Source: a virus. From it: a stretch of 64,000 bases of DNA. Positions within the stretch are counted from its first letter, which is position 1. Every line of letters starts with the position of its first letter. The notes under the pieces are model-generated. The model did no database searches. It was given only the letters and a program-made list of their open reading frames with translations, and was not told the origin of the DNA. The stretch spans positions 96,001 to 160,000 of IMG/VR virus record IMGVR_UViG_3300032401_000001; one strand, 5' to 3'. Positions 6,944-14,733 of the stretch are shown here, piece after piece. Both the position numbers and the translations under genes were made by a program.

Positions 6944-7407
6944 TGGGACGCCTTCGCCACGGTCATACCCAGGGTGCGCGAATGACCGTTGAGTACCTGG
7001 CGTGGTGCAACATGATTCAGCGGTGTACGAACCCCAAGGTGCAGAGCTATGCTACGCACGGTGCTCGTGGGATCAAAGTTTGTGTGCGCTGGTTGACTGA
7101 TTTTCAGAACTTCCTGGCGGACATGGGACGGAAACCGCGTCCGAGTCATCGGTGGAGTCTTGAACGGAAGGACAACAACGGAGACTACGAACCTGGAAAT
7201 TGTTGCTGGGCAACTTCGAAAGCGCAGGGACGCAACAAGAGAGGTAATCGGCTATTCACCGTCTGGGGTCGAACTCAGTGCGCAGCTGCTTGGGCCGAAG
7301 AGTACGGAATGTCGAAGCAGACGCTGCGCGCACGCCTGCTCCGGGGTTGGTCGATGGAGCGGATTCTCACTACCCCAATTAAGTCGCCATTGCATCAAGC
7401 CTCTTGA
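6940..7407 (+). CDS. phage HNH-type homing endonuclease
   Basis: WCNMIQRC...YxxHGARGIKVC...SLERKDNNGDYEPGNCCWAT signature. Confidence 0.8.
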   Translation: MMGRLRHGHTQGARMTVEYLAWCNMIQRCTNPKVQSYATHGARGIKVCVRWLTDFQNFLADMGRKPRPSHRWSLERKDNNGDYEPGNCCWATSKAQGRNKRGNRLFTVWGRTQCAAAWAEEYGMSKQTLRARLLRGWSMERILTTPIKSPLHQAS

Positions 7408-7507
7408 CGACGCTTTGTAGGCCGATTATCTTACGTAAAGTTACAGGTTTGTTGTGGCCTCCCTTCAGCCTCGTGTTCTTCCTCCTCCAGGCGGAAGAAT
7501 TGCTTGC

Positions 7508-7548
7508 AAACCCCCGGCGGGTGGCGCCTTGCCGGGGGTTTTCCTTTC
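7508..7548 (+). terminator. putative intrinsic terminator
   Basis: AAACCCCCGGC/GCCGGGGGTTT hairpin plus a T-rich tail. Confidence 0.55.
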
Positions 7549-7589
7549 TGCGCCACTTTTCGCAGTACGACCAAGGAGTGACTGAGAAC

Positions 7590-7958
7590 ATGCCCGACAC
7601 GAACCTCTACGTGGGCAACCTGCCCTGGGACATCACCAAGGAAGAGCTGGCGGCGCGCTTTGCGCAGTTCGGCGAAGTCCGTGGGGTACGCATCATCACC
7701 GACAAGGAGACGAGCCGATCGCGCGGCTTCGGTTTCGTCGAGTTCGCGCAGGCGGCCGACGCCCAGGCGGCCCTGGTCGAAGATGGCCAGGACTTCGGGG
7801 GCCGGGCGTTGCGCGTGAATCTCGCCAACCGCCAGAGCGAAGATCGACCGCGCAGCGGTAACGGCAACGGGCAGCGGCCCAAGAGCAACAGTGGCGGCGG
7901 CAAGCCCCGCGGCCACGGCGGCGGGCGTCCGCGCACGGCGTACGGCGACGAGGGCTGA
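7590..7958 (+). CDS. RRM (RNP1/RNP2) RNA-binding protein with Gly/Arg-rich tail
   Basis: RNP2 LYVGNL and RNP1 RGFGFVEF. Confidence 0.92.
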   Translation: MPDTNLYVGNLPWDITKEELAARFAQFGEVRGVRIITDKETSRSRGFGFVEFAQAADAQAALVEDGQDFGGRALRVNLANRQSEDRPRSGNGNGQRPKSNSGGGKPRGHGGGRPRTAYGDEG

Positions 7959-8133: not shown

Positions 8134-8469
8134 GGGCCTGAAACGGTTTCGACAGGGGTACAGAAGGCAGAGTAGCGTGCCGTGGTTGATCGGTGGGCCA
8201 CGTTAAAAGCCGATCAAAACCGAAAAGCGAACGACAACATCGTCCGCCAGCCCCTCCGCGCCGCGGCCTAGCCGAGGCGGGAGGAGCGGGGAAGCCCTCA
8301 GAGCTCCTGGCAACAGAAAGAGGGATGGTGGAGGCGCCGCAAGGCGCCCTGTAGCACCGGGTGAGGCTGGCCATACCGGTAACTACGCCAGCACGCCTCG
8401 CAAGAGGCTACGCACGTAGAAGCTCTACTGGAGTACTGCTGGACCCGGGTTCGACTCCCGGCAGGTCCA
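8134..8469 (+). ncRNA. ssrA: tmRNA, tag (A)ANDNIVRQPLRAAA
   Basis: GGGCCTG/CAGGTCC acceptor with G3.U70, GGTTTCGAC 5' motif, T-arm CCGGGTTCGACTCCCGG, tag frame 8227-8271. Confidence 0.95.
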
Positions 8470-8576
8470 ACTAAGCCCCGCCGGCGCGCGGTCAATCGTA
8501 TGGTAAACGCCCAGCGGCGCCGGCGGGGTGATACATTCGCTGGGCACCTCAAACTCAACATGACAGGAGCACGATC

Positions 8577-9314
8577 ATGAAGGCACAGCGGCTGAACCAG
8601 GTCATCTCCGTCGAGAAGGGCATCCGGAACAAGACCACGGAGCGCATCACGGAGCTGTATCACACCGTGCAGAAGCCGGCGCTCTTCGACGGCTTCAACA
8701 AGAAGTACCGCCCACTCGCCGAGGACGGCGAGCAGTTCCCGCCCGAGGACAAGCGGGTGCAGGTGAAGGGCATCGACGTCGTCAAGGAGCTGTTCGCGTG
8801 CATGCGCGAACTCTTCGACGTGACCCTCATCAAGGACAGCGCCAACTGCATGGCGAAGGCCGACGTGGTGGTAGGCGACAAGGTCGTCCTCAAGGACTGC
8901 CCGGCCACCTACCTGCTGTTCCTCGAGAAGCAGCTGACGGACCTCCACACCGCGATGTCGAAGATGCCGGTGCTCGACCCGGCCGAGGAGTGGGAGTTCG
9001 ACAAGAACGCGTCGCTGTACCGGACGCAGCCCGTCGAGACCGGCCGCACCAAGAAGGTGCAGAAGTCCCTGGTGCTGCTGGCGCCGACCGACAAGCACCC
9101 GGGACAGGCGCAGCTCATCACCGAGGACATGACGATCGGCTACTGGGGCACCGTGAAGTTCTCGGGGGCGATGGCACTGCCCGACAAGGAGCGGCTGCTC
9201 ATCCGCATCGAGAAGCTGCACCATGCGGTGAAGTTCGCCCGTGACGAAGCGAACACCGCCGGGGTGATCGACCGCAGCACCGAAGCGGTCTTCGACTACT
9301 TGACCAGCGCCTAG
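8577..9314 (+). CDS. conserved hypothetical protein (LNQVISVEKG...YLLFLEKQL...KFSGA family)
   Basis: 245 aa, AGGAG SD, very high GC3; resembles a widespread uncharacterised bacterial/phage family. Confidence 0.85.
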   Translation: MKAQRLNQVISVEKGIRNKTTERITELYHTVQKPALFDGFNKKYRPLAEDGEQFPPEDKRVQVKGIDVVKELFACMRELFDVTLIKDSANCMAKADVVVGDKVVLKDCPATYLLFLEKQLTDLHTAMSKMPVLDPAEEWEFDKNASLYRTQPVETGRTKKVQKSLVLLAPTDKHPGQAQLITEDMTIGYWGTVKFSGAMALPDKERLLIRIEKLHHAVKFARDEANTAGVIDRSTEAVFDYLTSA

Positions 9315-9329
9315 CGATAGGCGTACAAC

Positions 9330-9760
9330 GAGTTCAGGAGCACAAGCTCAAGCTCAAGCTCAAACTGAGAAGACCGGCGTCGGGGATACCCCCGTGGAGG
9401 TTCGAGTCCTCCGGCTCCCACTGCGTAGCGTTTTCGGGAGTCTGGCGAAATGGCAGACGCAGCCGCTGGTCGAACGTTCAAGCTCAACTTGTTGCTCCAA
9501 GCTCAAACTGGGAACGTCGACACCGAATCGAACGCGAAGCAAACCACGACGGAAACGCGGGTTCGAATCCCGCCGGGATCTCCAGGCAGTGCTGCACCCT
9601 TTGATCCTGTAGCCCAGCGGAAAGGCGCCGTCGCTCAGATCTTATCGCTTCGCTTAAATGCCGTCGGTGGCGTATGCGTTCCAGCGCAAGAGTCACCCTT
9701 GAAAGGTGAATATCTACGCACCCGGCCGGGGGAGAGGATACCTCCCTCGGCCACTTTTTT
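9330..9760 (+). ncRNA. chain of two circularly permuted tRNA-like modules with repeated linker segments
   Basis: Order is T-arm plus 3' acceptor strand, short linker, 5' acceptor strand plus D-arm, occurring twice (9372-9471 and 9547-9633). Confidence 0.7.
9724..9760 (+). terminator. intrinsic terminator
   Basis: GGCCGGGGGAG/CTCCCTCGGCC hairpin plus T-run. Confidence 0.7.
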
Positions 9761-9763
9761 AGC

Positions 9764-9795
9764 TTGACAGGCGTTTCAGATACGCTCATAGGTGG
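9764..9795 (+). promoter_or_regulatory. possible sigma70-like promoter for the tRNA array
   Basis: TTGACA at 9764-9769; the -10 element is weak. Confidence 0.3.
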
Positions 9796-10048
9796 AGAAG
9801 AGGCAGATCTTCCGTGACCAGAAAAGCCACAATGACGCAGTTGCTGTCCAGCCAGGCCATTCGGCCATGGTCGGACGCGTGCGTCTTTGTGCGCCCGACC
9901 TCACAAAAGCCCGAGGGTACCGCGTACGCCAATACCCTCGGGCACGAAAGGCCACCAGGCGGCTAAGCTCGAGGGGAACTGAAGAAGAGCGAGGCCGCCT
10001 GGGAAAGAACCCCGGCGGCCTTTTCGCATTTCAGGGGTACGAAGTCAC

Positions 10049-10136
10049 GCACGTGTAGGCCCGTAGGGCTCGGGGACCGGCTGTAAACCGGTTGGACACA
10101 GCGCCCAGGTTGGTTCGACTCCAGCCACGTGCACCA
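10049..10136 (+). tRNA. tRNA-Tyr(GUA)
   Basis: Cloverleaf, long variable arm, CCA encoded. Confidence 0.85.
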
Positions 10137-10178
10137 TGACCAGACGATTGAAACGCGAGGCGTGTCCTGTGTTCCCAC

Positions 10179-10251
10179 GCCTCCGTGACGCAACTGGTAG
10201 CGTAGCGGGCTTTTACCCCGAAAGTTGCAGGTTCGACTCCTGCCGGAGGCA
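10179..10251 (+). tRNA. tRNA-Lys(UUU)
   Basis: Cloverleaf, loop CTTTTAC. Confidence 0.9.
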
Positions 10252-10266
10252 CTGACGAGACGACAC

Positions 10267-10339
10267 ACGCGCCTAGCTCGACTGGCTGAGCACTCGGCTC
10301 TTACCCGAGAGGGTGTGGGTTCGACCCCCACGGCGCGTA
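10267..10339 (+). tRNA. tRNA-Lys(CUU)
   Basis: Cloverleaf, CTCGG-CTCTTAC-CCGAG. Confidence 0.85.
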
Positions 10340-10346
10340 CCGATGA

Positions 10347-10419
10347 TCGGGACTAGCACAACTGGTGGTGCACACGGCTCTGACCCGTGCGGCTTCAGGT
10401 TCGAATCCTGAGTCCCGAA
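10347..10419 (+). tRNA. tRNA-Gln(CUG)
   Basis: Cloverleaf, U1-A72. Confidence 0.9.
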
Positions 10420-10472
10420 CCGAGGGTGGTTGATCACCACCGTGACAACCGAATAGTCGTCGTGGTCAGTGT

Positions 10473-10543
10473 CCACCAGTGGCTCGAAGGTCGAGCGGCT
10501 GCCTTATGAGCGGCAGGTGAGGGTTCGATTCCTTCCTGGTGGA
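10473..10543 (+). tRNA. tRNA-Ile(UAU)
   Basis: CCACCAG/CTGGTGG acceptor; GCTGC-CTTATGA-GCGGC anticodon arm. Confidence 0.7.
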
Positions 10544-10549
10544 CTTCAT

Positions 10550-10621
10550 GCCTCGTGAGCTTGTAAGGTCGAGCGCTCGCCTGAAGAGCGAGAGGGCTCC
10601 GTTCGATTCGGAGACGAGGCA
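10550..10621 (+). tRNA. tRNA-Phe(GAA)
   Basis: Cloverleaf, CTCGC-CTGAAGA-GCGAG. Confidence 0.85.
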
Positions 10622-10628
10622 CCGACGA

Positions 10629-10700
10629 TCGGCCGTCGTCCAACGGTAGGACACTCGGCTTTGACCCGAGTAGTTGCACGTTCGAATCGTGCCGGCCGAA
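10629..10700 (+). tRNA. tRNA-Gln(UUG)
   Basis: Cloverleaf. Confidence 0.9.
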
Positions 10701-10704
10701 CTGA

Positions 10705-10781
10705 CGGGGTGTGGCTCAGCCTGGTAGAGCGCCTGCTTTGGGAGCAGGACGTCGCTGGTTCAAATCCAGTCACCCCGACCA
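10705..10781 (+). tRNA. tRNA-Pro(UGG)
   Basis: Canonical cloverleaf with CCA. Confidence 0.95.
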
Positions 10782-10782
10782 T

Positions 10783-10854
10783 TCTGGCGTCGCCTACTGG
10801 TAAGGCAGCCGGCTGTTAACCGGCCCTATGCAGGTTCGAATCCTGCCGCCAGAG
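10783..10854 (+). tRNA. tRNA-Asn(GUU)
   Basis: Cloverleaf, G73. Confidence 0.9.
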
Positions 10855-10860
10855 CAACAC

Positions 10861-10933
10861 GCAGCTCTAGCTCATTTGGTAGAGCACTCGCCCGATAAGC
10901 GAGAGGTGCCGAGTCCGAATCTCGGGAGCTGCA
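10861..10933 (+). tRNA. tRNA-Ile(GAU)
   Basis: Cloverleaf; C33 and an atypical T-loop. Confidence 0.8.
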
Positions 10934-10935
10934 CT

Positions 10936-11006
10936 GTGGCCGTGGCTCAATGGCTGAGCGCCGGGTTGTGGCCCCGGTTATGTGAGTTCGATTCTCACCG
11001 GTCACC
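10936..11006 (+). tRNA. tRNA-His(GUG)
   Basis: Cloverleaf, C73. Confidence 0.9.
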
Positions 11007-11010
11007 CCGC

Positions 11011-11081
11011 GGGTCGATCGTCCAATGGGAGGACAGTGCTCTCGCACGGCGCAGATCGGAGTTCAACTCTCCGTCGATCCA
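11011..11081 (+). tRNA. tRNA-Ala(CGC)
   Basis: Cloverleaf, G3.U70. Confidence 0.85.
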
Positions 11082-11085
11082 CAGA

Positions 11086-11156
11086 GGGGCCATCGTCCAA
11101 AGGGAAGATGCTGGTTCGGCAGACCAGAGATCGGGGTTCAATTCCCCGTGGCTCCA
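11086..11156 (+). tRNA. tRNA-Ala(GGC)
   Basis: Cloverleaf, G3.U70, C33. Confidence 0.85.
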
Positions 11157-11241
11157 CGAGAGGTAGGAGCGGGTTCGATTCCCGCCGAGGCATCGAGCGA
11201 TGGTGCTTCGTGGTGTAACCTGGCGAGCACAACCTCGTTAT
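11157..11241 (+). tRNA. circularly permuted tRNA-like element (3' half before 5' half)
   Basis: GAGGT, T-arm 11169-11185, CGAGGCA; 11 nt linker; TGCTTCG, D-arm, ACCTC; both stems pair. Confidence 0.65.
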
Positions 11242-11324
11242 GGAGAGTACTGGGGACGGTGACCCAACGCGGCTCGAACCCGCGGGCAGCCTCCGGGCTG
11301 GGCGTTCAACTCGTCTACTCTCCG
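11242..11324 (+). tRNA. tRNA-Ser(CGA), atypical Sec-like scaffold
   Basis: GGAGAGT(A)/(T)ACTCTCC, CGCGG-CTCGAAC-CCGCG, long variable arm, G73. Confidence 0.75.
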
Positions 11325-11330
11325 CAGCAT

Positions 11331-11403
11331 GCCGCTGAGCTCACCTGGTGGTGAGGCCCGCCTGTCACGCGGGAACCGGCGAGTTCGATCCTCGTCAGCG
11401 GCG
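11331..11403 (+). tRNA. tRNA-Asp(GUC)
   Basis: Cloverleaf, G73. Confidence 0.85.
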
Positions 11404-11462
11404 CCGAGCATCGGAGACCGGAACGCGTCCCGTGGGTACCCGGGCCGGAACGATGCTCATCT

Positions 11463-11549
11463 GGAAGCGCTGTGGGCATCGGTGCCCCACGCCGGTCCGC
11501 TACACCGGTGAGCCTCACGGCTCTGCTCGTTCAACTCGAGTCGCTTCCG
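11463..11549 (+). tRNA. tRNA-Ser(GCU), atypical Sec-like D-arm
   Basis: GGAAGCG/CGCTTCC, long D-stem with TCGG loop, long variable arm, G73. Confidence 0.7.
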
Positions 11550-11554
11550 CTCTC

Positions 11555-11630
11555 GCGGCCATAGTTCATTCAGTAGAACGCCGGCTTGCCAAGTCGGAGG
11601 TGCCGGGGGCAGAGCCCGGTGGCCGCTCCA
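11555..11630 (+). tRNA. tRNA-Gly(GCC)
   Basis: Cloverleaf with CCA; T-loop GGCAGAG is non-canonical. Confidence 0.85.
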
Positions 11631-11666
11631 ATTGCGAAAAGTCTCGGGTTAGAGTAGACTGTTTCC

Positions 11667-12062
11667 GTGCCCTACAAAGACCCTGACCAACAACGAGCAT
11701 ACATTCGAGCTTGGCGTCAGCAAAGACGGCGTACGTGGCTCACTGAACACGGACCGTGCATATACTGCAAGAGCACCCGACGTCTTGAAGTACACCACCG
11801 TGACCCAACAAAGAAGGTCACACACAACGTGTGGTCATGGTCAGAATCCCGTCGCGAAAGAGAACTCGCGAAGTGCGTCGTAGCGTGTCACCAGTGCCAT
11901 GAAAGAATCAGTACGACCGCACGAGAACCAAAGCACGGGACGAACAGTCGCTACACCAGTTACCGATACCGCTGTCGATGCACCGATTGTCACACTGCGC
12001 ACATCGCAGCAGATCGTGCATATCGACGAAAGAAACATGGAGAGGCCGACTCGCATCGGTGA
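11667..12062 (+). CDS. HNH endonuclease (with C-terminal HGT...CRC zinc motif)
   Basis: CIYC...LEVHHRDP...CVVACHQCH. Confidence 0.8.
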   Translation: MPYKDPDQQRAYIRAWRQQRRRTWLTEHGPCIYCKSTRRLEVHHRDPTKKVTHNVWSWSESRRERELAKCVVACHQCHERISTTAREPKHGTNSRYTSYRYRCRCTDCHTAHIAADRAYRRKKHGEADSHR

Positions 12063-12126
12063 CGAGCGCGTGTCTGGAAAGCACGTGTACCGAAAGGTAC
12101 TGAGCGTTCAACTCGCTTCCTCTCCG
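12039..12126 (+). tRNA. tRNA-Ser(GGA), atypical D-arm
   Basis: GGAGAGG/CCTCTCC, CGTGT-CTGGAAA-GCACG, long variable arm; overlaps the HNH 3' end. Confidence 0.75.
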
Positions 12127-12133
12127 CTACAAC

Positions 12134-12208
12134 GCGAGCTAAGTCACCGGGCGTGACGCCAGCCTTCCAAGCTGGACATGACGGGTTCGAGCCCCGTAGC
12201 TCGCTCCA
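12134..12208 (+). tRNA. tRNA-Gly(UCC)
   Basis: Cloverleaf with CCA. Confidence 0.85.
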
Positions 12209-12209
12209 T

Positions 12210-12282
12210 CCGGGTGTAGGGCAGTGGTTGTCCCGCCTGTTTCGGGAACAGGAGCACGCCAGTTCGATCCTGGCCGCCCGGA
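12210..12282 (+). tRNA. tRNA-Pro(CGG)
   Basis: Cloverleaf. Confidence 0.85.
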
Positions 12283-12286
12283 CAAC

Positions 12287-12375
12287 GCCAAGGTGGTTCG
12301 GAATTGGTAGACATCTCCGGCTGAGAACTGGAGGGGCGAAAGCCCGTGCGGGTTCGAGTCCCGCCCTTGGCACCA
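12287..12375 (+). tRNA. tRNA-Leu(GAG)
   Basis: Class II cloverleaf with CCA. Confidence 0.9.
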
Positions 12376-12376
12376 T

Positions 12377-12465
12377 GCACAGGTGGTTCGGAATTGGTAG
12401 ACATCCACGGCTCAGAACCGTGGGGGCGCAAGCCCGTGAGGGTTCGAGTCCCTCCCTGTGCACCA
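12377..12465 (+). tRNA. tRNA-Leu(CAG)
   Basis: Class II cloverleaf with CCA; near-duplicate of the previous gene. Confidence 0.9.
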
Positions 12466-12466
12466 C

Positions 12467-12542
12467 GCCGCTGAAGCTCACCAGGTAGAGCGCTCGGCTC
12501 GTATCCGAGAGGAAGCTGGTTCGAATCCAGTCAGCGGCTCCA
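12467..12542 (+). tRNA. tRNA-Thr(CGU)
   Basis: Cloverleaf with CCA. Confidence 0.9.
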
Positions 12543-12545
12543 TTC

Positions 12546-12618
12546 GCTGCGGTAGCACAATTGGCGGTGCATCTGATTTGTAATCAGAAGGTTCTCGGTT
12601 CGAAGCCGAGCCGCAGCT
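12546..12618 (+). tRNA. tRNA-Thr(UGU)
   Basis: Cloverleaf. Confidence 0.9.
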
Positions 12619-12641
12619 CCGCTCTTTACGCGGTAAAGAAC

Positions 12642-12712
12642 GGCCCCATCTGCTAACGGAAGGCAACTGGGTTCTCAACCCGGAAACGAGGGTTCAACTC
12701 CCTCTGGGGTCA
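12642..12712 (+). tRNA. tRNA-Glu(CUC)
   Basis: Cloverleaf. Confidence 0.85.
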
Positions 12713-12717
12713 CCGAC

Positions 12718-12792
12718 GCTCTCATGGTCTAACGGACAGGATACTGGACTTTCACTCCAGGGGCGGGAGTTCAACTCTCCCTGAGAGCACCA
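12718..12792 (+). tRNA. tRNA-Glu(UUC)
   Basis: Cloverleaf with CCA. Confidence 0.9.
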
Positions 12793-12793
12793 T

Positions 12794-12868
12794 CCGGGAT
12801 TGGTTCACTGGCGGAACGGCAGCCCTACAAGCTGCTCTAAGGGGGTTCGATTCCCTCATCCCGGACCA
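12794..12868 (+). tRNA. tRNA-Val(UAC)
   Basis: Cloverleaf with CCA, C33. Confidence 0.8.
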
Positions 12869-12869
12869 C

Positions 12870-12941
12870 ACGCGGTTGGCTCAGCGGCTGAGCACCTGCT
12901 CGACGCGCAGGTCTAGGCAGGTTCGACCCCTGCACCGCGTA
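12870..12941 (+). tRNA. tRNA-Val(GAC)
   Basis: Cloverleaf, C33. Confidence 0.8.
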
Positions 12942-12946
12942 CTGAT

Positions 12947-13019
12947 GGGTGCGTAGCTCACTTGGGAGAGCGCGAGCTTTGCAAGCTTGAGGCAGAGGGT
13001 TCGAATCCCTTCGCATCCA
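12947..13019 (+). tRNA. tRNA-Ala(UGC)
   Basis: Cloverleaf, G3.U70. Confidence 0.92.
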
Positions 13020-13025
13020 CTTCAT

Positions 13026-13101
13026 GCCGACGTAGCACATCTGGCAGTGCGCATCCTTGGTAAGGATGAGGTAGCCGGTTCGACTCCGGCCGTCGGCTCC
13101 A
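13026..13101 (+). tRNA. tRNA-Thr(GGU)
   Basis: Cloverleaf with CCA. Confidence 0.92.
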
Positions 13102-13102
13102 C

Positions 13103-13174
13103 GGGTCACGCTCTGGGTCAGCGCACTGGACTCCAAACCCGGTTGGCGGCGAGGTTCGATTCCTCGGTGACCCG
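13103..13174 (+). tRNA. tRNA-Trp(CCA)
   Basis: Cloverleaf, loop CTCCAAA, G73. Confidence 0.75.
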
Positions 13175-13178
13175 CTAC

Positions 13179-13252
13179 GGTACCGTCGCCAAGAGGCCAG
13201 GCTCCGGTCTGCAAAACCGGCAACGCGGGTTCAACTCCCGCCGGTACCTCCA
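13179..13252 (+). tRNA. tRNA-Cys(GCA)
   Basis: Cloverleaf, U73, CCA. Confidence 0.9.
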
Positions 13253-13253
13253 C

Positions 13254-13324
13254 GCTCCGCGGTGCGGCGCCAGCCGGGCCTTCTAATCCCAGCACTCCGG
13301 GTTCGACTCCCGGGCGGAGCTCCA
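13254..13324 (+). tRNA. tRNA-Arg(UCU), minimal D-arm
   Basis: GCTCCGC/GCGGAGC acceptor, loop CTTCTAA, shortened D-arm, imperfect anticodon stem. Confidence 0.6.
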
Positions 13325-13346
13325 GTTTCACCGTCTGCTGAAACCT

Positions 13347-13418
13347 GCCCCGCTAGTGAAACGGAGATCACAGCGCACTCCTAAGGCGCGAGTCCCAGTT
13401 CGACTCTGGGGCGGGGCG
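13347..13418 (+). tRNA. tRNA-Arg(CCU)
   Basis: Cloverleaf. Confidence 0.85.
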
Positions 13419-13422
13419 CTGC

Positions 13423-13494
13423 ACCGTCGTCCAAGCGGCTTGGCCTCGCCCTCCGAAGGCAAGTGTGAGGGTTCAACTCCCTCCGACGGTACCA
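13423..13494 (+). tRNA. tRNA-Arg(CCG)
   Basis: Cloverleaf with CCA, unusual D-arm. Confidence 0.7.
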
Positions 13495-13495
13495 T

Positions 13496-13567
13496 CTCCT
13501 CCTAGTGAAACGGACATCACTCTGGTCTACGGAACCAGCATTCCGAGTTCGAATCTCGGGGAGGAGG
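13496..13567 (+). tRNA. tRNA-Arg(ACG)
   Basis: Cloverleaf. Confidence 0.85.
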
Positions 13568-13571
13568 CTAC

Positions 13572-13653
13572 GCGAGCGTGGCGGAACTGGCAGACGCGCC
13601 GGACTTAGGCTCCGGTGTCGCAAGACGTGCAGGTTCAACTCCTGTCGCTCGCA
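13572..13653 (+). tRNA. tRNA-Leu(UAG)
   Basis: Class II cloverleaf. Confidence 0.92.
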
Positions 13654-13658
13654 CCGAC

Positions 13659-13746
13659 GCGTGAGTGGGTGGAACCGGCAGACCCGGCTGCCTTAAAAGC
13701 GGCTGCTCTTCGGAGCGTGCGAGTTCGAGTCTCGCCTCACGCACCA
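13659..13746 (+). tRNA. tRNA-Leu(UAA)
   Basis: Class II cloverleaf with CCA. Confidence 0.9.
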
Positions 13747-13747
13747 C

Positions 13748-13823
13748 TGCGGGGAGGACCGGCTGTCCGGCCCGGCCTCATAAGCCGGCTTGCACGAGGG
13801 TTCGACTCCCTCCTCCGCAACCA
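13748..13823 (+). tRNA. tRNA-Met(CAU)
   Basis: Loop CTCATAA, CCA; fMet/Met/Ile2 status not resolved. Confidence 0.75.
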
Positions 13824-13824
13824 A

Positions 13825-13897
13825 CAGGGTAGGGCTCGGATGGTTGAGCGCCAGTCTGGGGGACTGGAGGACGCGGGTTCGAGTCCCGCTGCCCTGA
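13825..13897 (+). tRNA. tRNA-Pro(GGG)
   Basis: Cloverleaf. Confidence 0.85.
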
Positions 13898-13901
13898 CTA
13901 C

Positions 13902-13986
13902 GCGAGCGTGCTTGGAATTGGCAGACAGCACCGGCTCAAACCCGGTGGCCCTTCGGGACATGAGGGTTCGACTCCCTCCGCTCGCA
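13902..13986 (+). tRNA. tRNA-Leu(CAA)
   Basis: Class II cloverleaf. Confidence 0.9.
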
Positions 13987-14053
13987 CTGACGATGACCAC
14001 GTCGGCTATTCTTAGGGAGTACCATGACCTGGAAGATACGCTTGAGGTGACCC

Positions 14054-14563
14054 GTGCAAACGACCTTAGTACTGGACCAATCGATGCAACCCATCAACAT
14101 CGTCTCCTGGCATCGTGCTGTCGGCATGATGCTGACGGGGTCAGCGGACGTGCTCGAAGAGTACGACCAGCTCGTGCATCCGTGGATTCAGATGCCGGCC
14201 GTCGTCCGCCTCAAGCACAACGTCAGCCGCGGCAAGCAGAAGGTGAAGTTCAGCCGCGCCAACGTGCTGATGCGGGATCGTTGCCGGTGCCAGTACTGTG
14301 GGCAGAAATTCTCGGCCCGGGAGTTGACGTTCGACCACGTCGTGCCCCGCTGCCGCGGCGGCAAGACCGAGTGGGAGAACATCGTCATGGCTTGCTGGCC
14401 GTGCAACGATGCCAAGGGTGGGCGGCTACCTCAACAGGCCGACATGCGGCTCCTCCGCGCGCCGGTACGGCCCTCGTGGGTGCCGCACTACAACCCTCGG
14501 CTGAAGACGTGCGATGTTCCACCCGAGTGGCGATGCTACTGGACGGTGGAGCTCGAGTCGTAG
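14054..14563 (+). CDS. HNH endonuclease (McrA-like)
   Basis: CQYCG...LTFDHVVPRCRGGKTEWENIVMACWPCNDAKG. Confidence 0.9.
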   Translation: MQTTLVLDQSMQPINIVSWHRAVGMMLTGSADVLEEYDQLVHPWIQMPAVVRLKHNVSRGKQKVKFSRANVLMRDRCRCQYCGQKFSARELTFDHVVPRCRGGKTEWENIVMACWPCNDAKGGRLPQQADMRLLRAPVRPSWVPHYNPRLKTCDVPPEWRCYWTVELES

Positions 14564-14639
14564 TAGGATGAAATCTCTGGTGATCGTCGTGCTGGTAGAC
14601 GGCGCTCCGTGTCGCTACACGGGGCGCCGTCGCTATTTT

Positions 14640-14723
14640 GGAGACGTCGCTCAGTTGGTCGAGCAGTCGCCTTGAAAGCGGCCAGGCCGAAAGGCTCTGC
14701 GAGTTCGAATCTCGCCGTCTCCG
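14640..14723 (+). tRNA. tRNA-Ser(UGA)
   Basis: Class II cloverleaf, G73. Confidence 0.9.
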
Positions 14724-14733
14724 CTTCTTTAGG

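Follow-up and report, generated by a model that had tools for sequence, protein, structure and literature searches.

We identified a structured RNA, carrying two inside-out tRNA-like modules and lying just downstream of a gene of the uncharacterised protein family DUF7873, as a member of a widespread, uncatalogued RNA family tied to that gene. The window analysed comprises 64,000 nucleotides (nt), bases 96001–160000 of a complete 197.8-kb phage record (IMG/VR record IMGVR_UViG_3300032401_000001), and the public sequencing runs containing it are sediment metagenomes. The RNA occupies positions 9337–9760 of the window on the plus strand, about 425 nt in all, and starts 22 nt past the stop codon of the DUF7873 gene (8577–9314, plus strand; 245 amino acids; Pfam PF25283, E value 3e-91), the product of which is its presumed partner. 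The architecture is common to relatives, whereas the ends are predictions, helix P1 marking the 5′ end and the terminal hairpin with its U run marking the 3′ end. The RNA is not in Rfam 15, and no description of it was found in the searchable literature. With a probability of roughly 60%, we believe that 9337–9760 is a single non-coding RNA of this DUF7873-linked family and that it acts as a ribonucleoprotein (RNP) with DUF7873, presenting tRNA mimics.

Two Permuted tRNA-Like Modules in One RNA

A first-pass annotation of the region had described a chain of circularly permuted tRNA bodies lacking anticodons. For the two modules this holds, as every stem that was listed pairs, and does so in the permuted order only. 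Each module is entered through a stem equivalent to the anticodon stem, and its parts are as follows (positions here and below are those of the window).

9372–9471, plus strand: tRNA-like module 1, permuted; its T, acceptor, and D stems show compensatory changes in the perfect-stem set
9372–9379 with 9464–9471: anticodon-like stem of module 1, 8 pairs, one of them G–U
9381–9394: variable hairpin of module 1
9396–9412: T arm of module 1
9413–9419 with 9436–9442: acceptor stem of module 1, 7 of 7 pairs, with a closing loop of 16 nt (9420–9435)
9445–9460: D arm of module 1, Leu type
9547–9633, plus strand: tRNA-like module 2, permuted, as seen in sequence, fold, and covariation
9547–9552 with 9628–9633: anticodon-like stem of module 2
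9557–9573: T arm of module 2
9574–9580 with 9603–9609: acceptor stem of module 2, 7 of 7 pairs
9581–9602: acceptor loop of module 2, 22 nt, first letters UCCA
9612–9626: D arm of module 2

An unconstrained minimum-free-energy fold recovers the whole of module 2 together with the three helices that enclose it. The modules exceed chance, because the same two modules follow DUF7873 in the same order in unrelated bacteria and phages and because their stems covary.

Circularly permuted tRNA genes are known from the red alga Cyanidioschyzon and the archaeon Thermofilum, and they resemble the modules in encoding the 3′ half before the 5′ half, with a linker at the acceptor ends. Those genes mature to full tRNAs with an anticodon loop, whereas the RNA described here cannot. 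When we looked for an anticodon stem–loop in the two modules, we found none: the stems open into P1 and the repeats in one case and into P4 in the other, and as these helices and repeats are themselves conserved, no anticodon loop can form.

Helices, Repeats, and a Terminal Hairpin Around the Modules

The modules are embedded in further helices and single-stranded segments, all on the plus strand.

9337–9342, plus strand: 5′ strand of helix P1, GGAGCA, pairing with UGCUCC at 9493–9498 and enclosing the repeats and module 1
9347–9368, plus strand: four YUNA units (CUCA, CUCA, CUCA, CUGA) with an exact 6-nt period, single-stranded
9483–9505, plus strand: downstream repeat segment, with the YUNA units CUCA at 9483–9486 and 9502–9505 flanking the 3′ strand of P1
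9511–9519 and 9521–9526, plus strand: 5′ strands of helices P2 (pairing with 9671–9682) and P3 (pairing with 9664–9669)
9527–9533, plus strand: internal-loop motif AUCGAAC, of which UCGA is nearly invariant in the family
9534–9540, plus strand: 5′ strand of helix P4, GCGAAGC, pairing with 9647–9653
9641–9660, plus strand: 3′ side of domain 2, comprising the YUNA unit CUUA (9641–9644), the 3′ strand of P4 (9647–9653), and the loop UUAAAUG (9654–9660), in nearly invariant columns
9664–9669 and 9671–9682, plus strand: 3′ strands of P3 and P2, from fold and covariation
9724–9752, plus strand: terminal hairpin of 11 pairs with the loop GGAUAC, followed by a U run at 9755–9760, from a terminator scan

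The sequence of P1 differs among family members while its pairing is retained (GAGCG:CGCUC, GGAGA:UCUCC, GGAGUA:UACUCC, and GAAGCG:CGCUUC elsewhere in the family). In the window, helix P2 is a prediction from the fold and from one U–G to C–G change in a relative. We also considered extending P1 by pairing 9343–9346 with 9488–9491, and rejected this, as a change in a relative at 9488–9489 breaks the pairing and restores the repeat AAGCU.

The repeats had been noted in the first-pass annotation as an exact 13-mer, present at 9355–9367 and 9498–9510, with degenerate versions after module 2. The exact copies are real and each consists of two YUNA units; the repeats at large are not degenerate 13-mers, and what recurs throughout the family is the YUNA unit at 6-nt spacing. 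Upstream of module 1, the U and the A of the unit are invariant in all 41 sequences in three of the four units, and nearly so in the remaining one, the third from the 5′ side (U in 37, A in 39). Pairing between the 5′ and 3′ repeat segments was rejected as a candidate, both in the window and in locus L149, as the segments are direct repeats and not complements of each other. They are therefore most simply read, from their sequence, as putative recognition sites.

The elements together form one stretch resembling a transcription unit, and the terminator proposed to close it was recovered by the terminator scan as the hairpin at 9724–9752 and its U run. The terminal hairpin is a recurrent part of the family: 72 of 132 loci have, beyond module 2, a hairpin of at least 5 pairs with a GGA(U/C)A loop, as compared with 2 of 132 control regions.

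Linkage to DUF7873 in Bacteria and Phages

Over 3,500 relatives of DUF7873 were found, in bacteria as well as in phages. The gene is followed by the same pair of modules, in unchanged order, in Arthrobacter phage Racecar and Gordonia phage GodonK, where it again lies within tRNA arrays, and likewise in a Streptomyces chromosome and in two more closely related metagenomic phages. A strict pattern scan of 146 loci placed permuted modules downstream of the gene in most of them and upstream in only three. The DNA of the window itself found no match by megablast in phage records, and a locus search in viral contigs with a single protein gave none either; the viral loci were found with an alignment as query.

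We also used a covariance model, R1, built on domain 2 (P3, P4, module 2, and the conserved loops) from 36 seed sequences, the window among them. On the window, R1 scores 97.6 bits (E value 1e-23; model positions 1–157) at 9511–9677. Full-length matches were found at 79 of 80 bacterial DUF7873 loci, the single failure being a truncated contig, and at about 60 of 64 viral ones, about 140 of 144 in total, nearly always downstream of the gene and on its strand. In a few exceptional loci, such as L027, L069, and L151, the RNA lies upstream of the gene, at a distance of about 1 kb, or on the other strand.

To these loci we added an unconditioned sample of 101 genomes from one actinobacterial order (leaving out one unpublished genome, G046, changes nothing). 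DUF7873 is present in 63 of them (∼60%), and 61 of the 63 have a full-length R1 match 150–1,200 nt downstream of the gene on the same strand, as opposed to 0 of the 38 genomes without the gene. Beyond this order, the gene–RNA pair also occurs in further phyla and in phages from several groups of hosts. In most of the sampled genomes, there are in addition partial R1 matches of 91–95 nt. These are not further copies of the RNA and look like junctions of tandem tRNA genes or like true YrlA RNAs beside Rsr, the bacterial Ro60 protein discussed below.

Hints of transcription come from two sediment metatranscriptome runs of one study. Contigs from a relative with 91–96% identity span 9120–9668 and 9409–9807, others cover parts of the DUF7873 gene and of the transfer-messenger RNA (tmRNA) gene, and one joins the end of the DUF7873 gene to the RNA. 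Where the relative differs, it does so chiefly in the acceptor loops and in the D loop, and its U–G to C–G change in P2 fits the structure. We take the contigs as a hint only, not as proof of transcription or of the ends, and read nothing into stretches that they leave uncovered, as they are assembled sequences from libraries in which carry-over of DNA is uncontrolled and one of them runs uncut through both acceptor loops.

So close a linkage would also be expected if the structured stretch were mainly a cis-acting part of the 3′ untranslated region (UTR) of the DUF7873 mRNA, with a role in stabilisation, in processing, or in autoregulation through binding, and not a free-standing RNA with an activity of its own. 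P1 begins 22 nt after the stop codon with no promoter-like site between the two, the RNA is nearly always codirectional with the gene and downstream of it, and the relative's contig connecting the two is of the kind that a common transcript would give. Set against this, known stabilisers need far less than about 425 nt of RNA with invariant repeats, two full tRNA mimics, and a terminal loop that is conserved, and the opposite-strand, distant, or upstream position of the RNA in L027, L069, and L151 is incompatible with a 3′ UTR at those loci. We therefore consider a purely cis-acting role unlikely.

Compensatory Changes Across Relatives

The first-pass annotation had suggested, as a check, that a covariance model be built from sequences lying downstream of the homologues of 8577–9314. 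The outcome was strongly positive: the permuted stems covary and model R1 matches. Covariation was computed from a MAFFT alignment of 36 sequences and 37 pairs for domain 2 and from an alignment of 41 sequences and 25 pairs for domain 1, and compared with the same alignments after sliding the pairing partners. In domain 2, 92.6% of the cells are paired (39–46% when slid), 35 of 37 pairs have changed on both sides, and the covariation score is 0.68 (0.13–0.15 when slid). The corresponding figures for domain 1 are 89.4% (39–51%), 23 of 25 pairs, and 0.46 (0.07–0.16).

As the T, acceptor, and D stems served in selecting the sequences, their perfect pairing is partly by construction. Helices P1, P3, and P4 played no part in the selection, and they are paired in 75%, 95%, and 88% of the cells, respectively, with compensatory changes at every position: all six pairs of P1 have changed on both sides, five of five pairs of P3 covary, and P4, which has nine pairs in the family alignment, has changed on both sides in all of them. 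The acceptor stems covary freely and show no conserved identity set.

Similarity to YrlA RNAs and Relation to Ro60

The RNA had previously been left without any known class. Its topology, in which the T arm, a loop-closed acceptor stem, and the D arm follow one another and the ends emerge at the anticodon stem, is nevertheless that of YrlA (RF02553). YrlA RNAs are bacterial and phage Y RNAs bound by the Ro60 protein, or Rsr; they have an inside-out tRNA topology and occur also in mycobacteriophages (PMC4201824). In both, the tRNA-like domain is entered through the anticodon stem and has its parts in the same order, and both kinds of RNA are present in phages and actinobacteria; the CGAA-type motif in the helix leading to the YrlA domain may have a counterpart in the conserved AUCGAAC loop. 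They differ in several respects: YrlA has one tRNA-like domain in ∼110–150 nt, whereas the RNA described here has two in ∼425 nt, adds P1, YUNA repeats every 6 nt, and a terminal loop GGAUAC, and adjoins DUF7873 instead of Ro60.

With relaxed thresholds, YrlA was the sole Rfam family to align over its full length, scoring 31.6 bits at 9525–9654 against a gathering score of 69, with module 1 left unmatched; the scores in relatives were 27.6–38.2 bits. The site bound by Rsr in YrlA has the motif GNCGAAN0-1G (PMC4201824). In the window, the corresponding stretch is AUCGAACG at 9527–9534, with A in place of the first G, and most relatives have AUCGACC.

Chen et al. (2014) recognised YrlA genes as lying within about 4 kb of a gene for Ro60/Rsr, which contains a TROVE domain (PMC4201824). 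We found no TROVE/Ro60 gene in the complete 197.8-kb phage record, and hence none within that distance, the adjoining gene being DUF7873; Racecar and GodonK have none either. In the sample of 101 genomes, TROVE was found in 37 of the 63 carriers of DUF7873 and in 14 of the 38 noncarriers, leaving 26 carriers without a match. Ten genomes had both loci placeable, and in these the TROVE gene lies 70–100 kb from DUF7873 and has its own YrlA-like match within ∼1.3 kb; the two systems thus coexist as separate loci. The RNA is accordingly a YrlA by design but not by membership, as it scores too low, no TROVE gene was found in the phage, and its constant neighbour is DUF7873.

Two observations concern the Ro60 loci themselves. 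In G057, G105, G093, G065, and other genomes, short R1 matches (positions ∼44–108 or 40–114; 44–54 bits) lie within ∼1.3 kb of TROVE and are probably the genuine YrlA RNAs of these actinobacteria. The distance between the Rsr and DUF7873 loci is fairly constant, 70–100 kb, in several genomes.

We also weighed an ordinary Y RNA of the YrlA type that uses Ro60/Rsr supplied by the host, with DUF7873 as an unrelated neighbour or an accessory factor. It would account for YrlA being the only full-length family match, for the likeness of the AUCGAAC loop to the Rsr-site motif, and for the TROVE genes in 37 of 63 DUF7873-positive genomes, and YrlA is known from mycobacteriophages (PMC4201824). It fits poorly with YrlA scores that are all far under the gathering score, with the failure to find TROVE in the phage, its two relatives, and 26 of 63 carrier genomes, and with the separate YrlA-like matches of the distant TROVE genes in the ten placeable genomes, and it leaves the almost one-to-one tracking of DUF7873 by the RNA unaccounted for. 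We regard this explanation as quite unlikely.

Acceptor Loops and the tmRNA-Like Interpretation

The composition of the acceptor loops was counted at 78 loci, those with both modules identified.

Position 73: A in 67 of 78 for module 1; U in 71 of 78 for module 2
Position 74: C in 68 of 78 for module 1 and in 76 of 78 for module 2, 144 of 156 overall
Full CCA encoded: 29 of 78 for module 1; 24 of 78 for module 2 (19 of 30 viral)

The median loop length is 7–8 nt in three of the four gene–module groups and 12 nt in module 2 of the viruses, and the lengths range from 4 to ∼150 nt. The longest belongs to the closest relative, L157 (81% protein identity), in which the RNA region (L157 3742–4230) has an insertion of ∼150 nt in the acceptor loop of module 2 and a small extra hairpin in that of module 1; the acceptor loops thus tolerate, or attract, insertions.

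All family members have 7-bp acceptor stems. In Mycobacterium smegmatis, which has the sole YrlA with an acceptor stem of 7 bp, RNase P cuts this RNA both in vivo and in vitro; the RNA gains CA, completing CCA, and both halves remain with Rsr (PMC4201824). Given this precedent and the 7-bp stems of all members, cleavage of the RNA into base-paired pieces is a reasonable proposal, and the conserved positions 73 and 74 and the stem length fit cleavage with CCA ends. We consider it plausible, if somewhat short of an even chance, that RNase P cuts one or both acceptor loops and that CCA is then completed.

The first-pass annotation had gone further and proposed that RNase P and 3′ processing give a three-piece RNA with two ends that can be aminoacylated and with linkers that are either protein-binding or mRNA-like, in which case they would serve, as in tmRNA, as template for a tag. 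The 7-bp stems, the conserved N73–C74, and the UCCA encoded in module 2 are as such a molecule would have them, the YrlA of M. smegmatis is a known case of cleavage with CCA addition (PMC4201824), and a loop range of 4 to ∼150 nt is expected of a removed or unconstrained segment. The features specific to tmRNA were not found. The alanine identity pair G3:U70 is absent from both acceptor stems (3:70 is G–C in module 1 and U–A in module 2), and stems that covary freely with no conserved identity set argue against this reading. The tmRNA models matched nothing but an 18-nt fragment of a T arm (17.7 bits; gathering score of RF00023, 47), with the permuted-tmRNA model RF04321 unmatched. No conserved tag frame, resume codon, or stop was seen in the linkers, which on either side of module 1 have a 6-nt period in which U and A are fixed, and the phage already carries a canonical tmRNA nearby. 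The two-piece permuted tmRNAs of alphaproteobacteria and some cyanobacteria (RF04321) do resemble the RNA in that the 3′ strand of the acceptor and the T arm precede the acceptor 5′ strand and in having an encoded CCA followed by an intervening segment; the RNA differs from them in lacking G3:U70 and a tag frame, in having proper D arms, and in consisting of two units. Tagging by a three-piece RNA thus appears very improbable.

Functionless debris, left at the border of the array by rearrangement or tandem duplication of tRNA genes, could be suspected from the position beside 38 tRNA genes and from the partial matches that junctions of tandem tRNA genes give to YrlA-type models (see also PMC4201824). 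This is already contradicted by the way in which the region is conserved, with compensatory changes, in several bacterial phyla and in phages, by the non-tRNA helices P1, P3, and P4 and the invariant motifs, and by the one-to-one linkage to DUF7873, which extends to chromosomes with no tRNA array nearby.

The DUF7873 Protein

The AlphaFold2 model of DUF7873, which is confident (pLDDT 88), consists of long helices packed against long beta hairpins. A Foldseek search of the PDB gave no match at an E value of 0.001 or below, and its weak top rows, which include Cas7, have a TM score of ∼0.1 and are meaningless; VIA-align returned only generic helical matches (Z ≤ 8.7). The protein has no match in PADLOC or PHROGs and belongs to no named Atlas cluster, and our literature search found no paper naming DUF7873.

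Genomic Setting

The gene pair sits in an island of RNA-related genes.

7404–7955, plus strand: gene with an RRM_1 domain (Pfam E value 7e-23), just upstream of the tmRNA gene
8134–8472: canonical one-piece tmRNA (112.8 bits), about 1.2 kb upstream of the double-module RNA
10049–14724: array of 38 tRNA genes

The order RRM, tmRNA, DUF7873, RNA, and tRNA array is found also in the closest relative, L157 (RRM at L157 2018–2368). RRM proteins are uncommon in phages, and the RRM_1 protein could for that reason be a further RNA-binding player in the island.

The spacer of 290 nt between the RNA and the first gene beyond it, tRNA-Tyr, contains a TTGACA box just past the U run of the RNA (9764–9795, plus strand) and a strong 14-pair hairpin with a T tail (9909–9943) that reads as a terminator of the minus strand. 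Within the array, the 84-nt gap between tRNA-Ala(ggc) and tRNA-Ser(cga) is filled by a third, minimal permuted tRNA-like unit (11160–11236, plus strand). This unit has the outer stem GAGG/CCUC and, between its T arm and its D arm, an acceptor stem of 7 bp closed by a loop of 11 nt. Model R1 gives it 29.1 bits, and its fold z score is unremarkable; the counterpart in the same gap of L157 (5795–5868) scores 45.8 bits and has one mismatch in the acceptor stem. The gap between tRNA-Cys and tRNA-Arg (13253–13346, plus strand) has a good T arm at 13297–13313 with GCGGAGC-UCCA after it. No tRNA was called there by ARAGORN or by the Rfam tRNA model, and it may be a degenerate or unusual one.

Discussion

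We propose that the RNA would be transcribed with DUF7873, or just after it, and would form an RNP with the protein, the YUNA repeats and internal loops being the likely protein sites. Each module is a tRNA elbow joined to a 7-bp acceptor stem, with the anticodon stem as its entrance, and the two mimics would be offered to enzymes that recognise the elbow and the acceptor end; RNase P, the CCA-adding enzyme, and enzymes of modification or repair are examples. Were RNase P to cut the acceptor loops, the pieces would stay joined by the acceptor and outer helices. As the RNA sits between the tmRNA gene and the array of 38 tRNA genes, its role is most likely in the maintenance of tRNAs or translation during infection.

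A more specific form of this proposal is possible, and we offer it tentatively. DUF7873 would be a YUNA-reading protein, perhaps an oligomer, working independently of Ro60; both acceptor loops would be opened, by RNase P and the CCA-adding enzyme, to give a multi-piece particle of a kind not described before, with two CCA ends, that engages the machinery handling tRNAs. Large phages would carry the particle in their tRNA and tmRNA islands in order to keep translation running or divert host factors during infection.

Several points weigh against an RNP of DUF7873. The protein has no RNA-binding fold that structure and family searches could recognise, and its linkage to the RNA could reflect a cis-acting 3′ UTR element rather than a stable particle. 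Cooperation with Ro60 is conceivable where both occur, as in 37 of 63 carriers, and for the phage the host might supply Ro60. The contigs from the RNA libraries may reflect carried-over DNA, and the one that runs through both acceptor loops is uncut. Finally, the acceptor loops are only 6–8 nt long in most members, which may disfavour cleavage by RNase P.

To our knowledge, Y RNAs have so far been understood solely as partners of Ro60. Here, the inside-out tRNA design is used twice in one RNA, together with conserved parts of its own, and alongside a different, uncharacterised protein. If the RNA and DUF7873 form an RNP, tRNA mimicry would have been put to use a second time, and independently, in RNA surveillance or in manipulating translation, and DUF7873 would gain its first function. 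The place of the pair in the tRNA and tmRNA islands of phages makes it testable in cultured systems, among them GodonK, Racecar, and Streptomyces strains.

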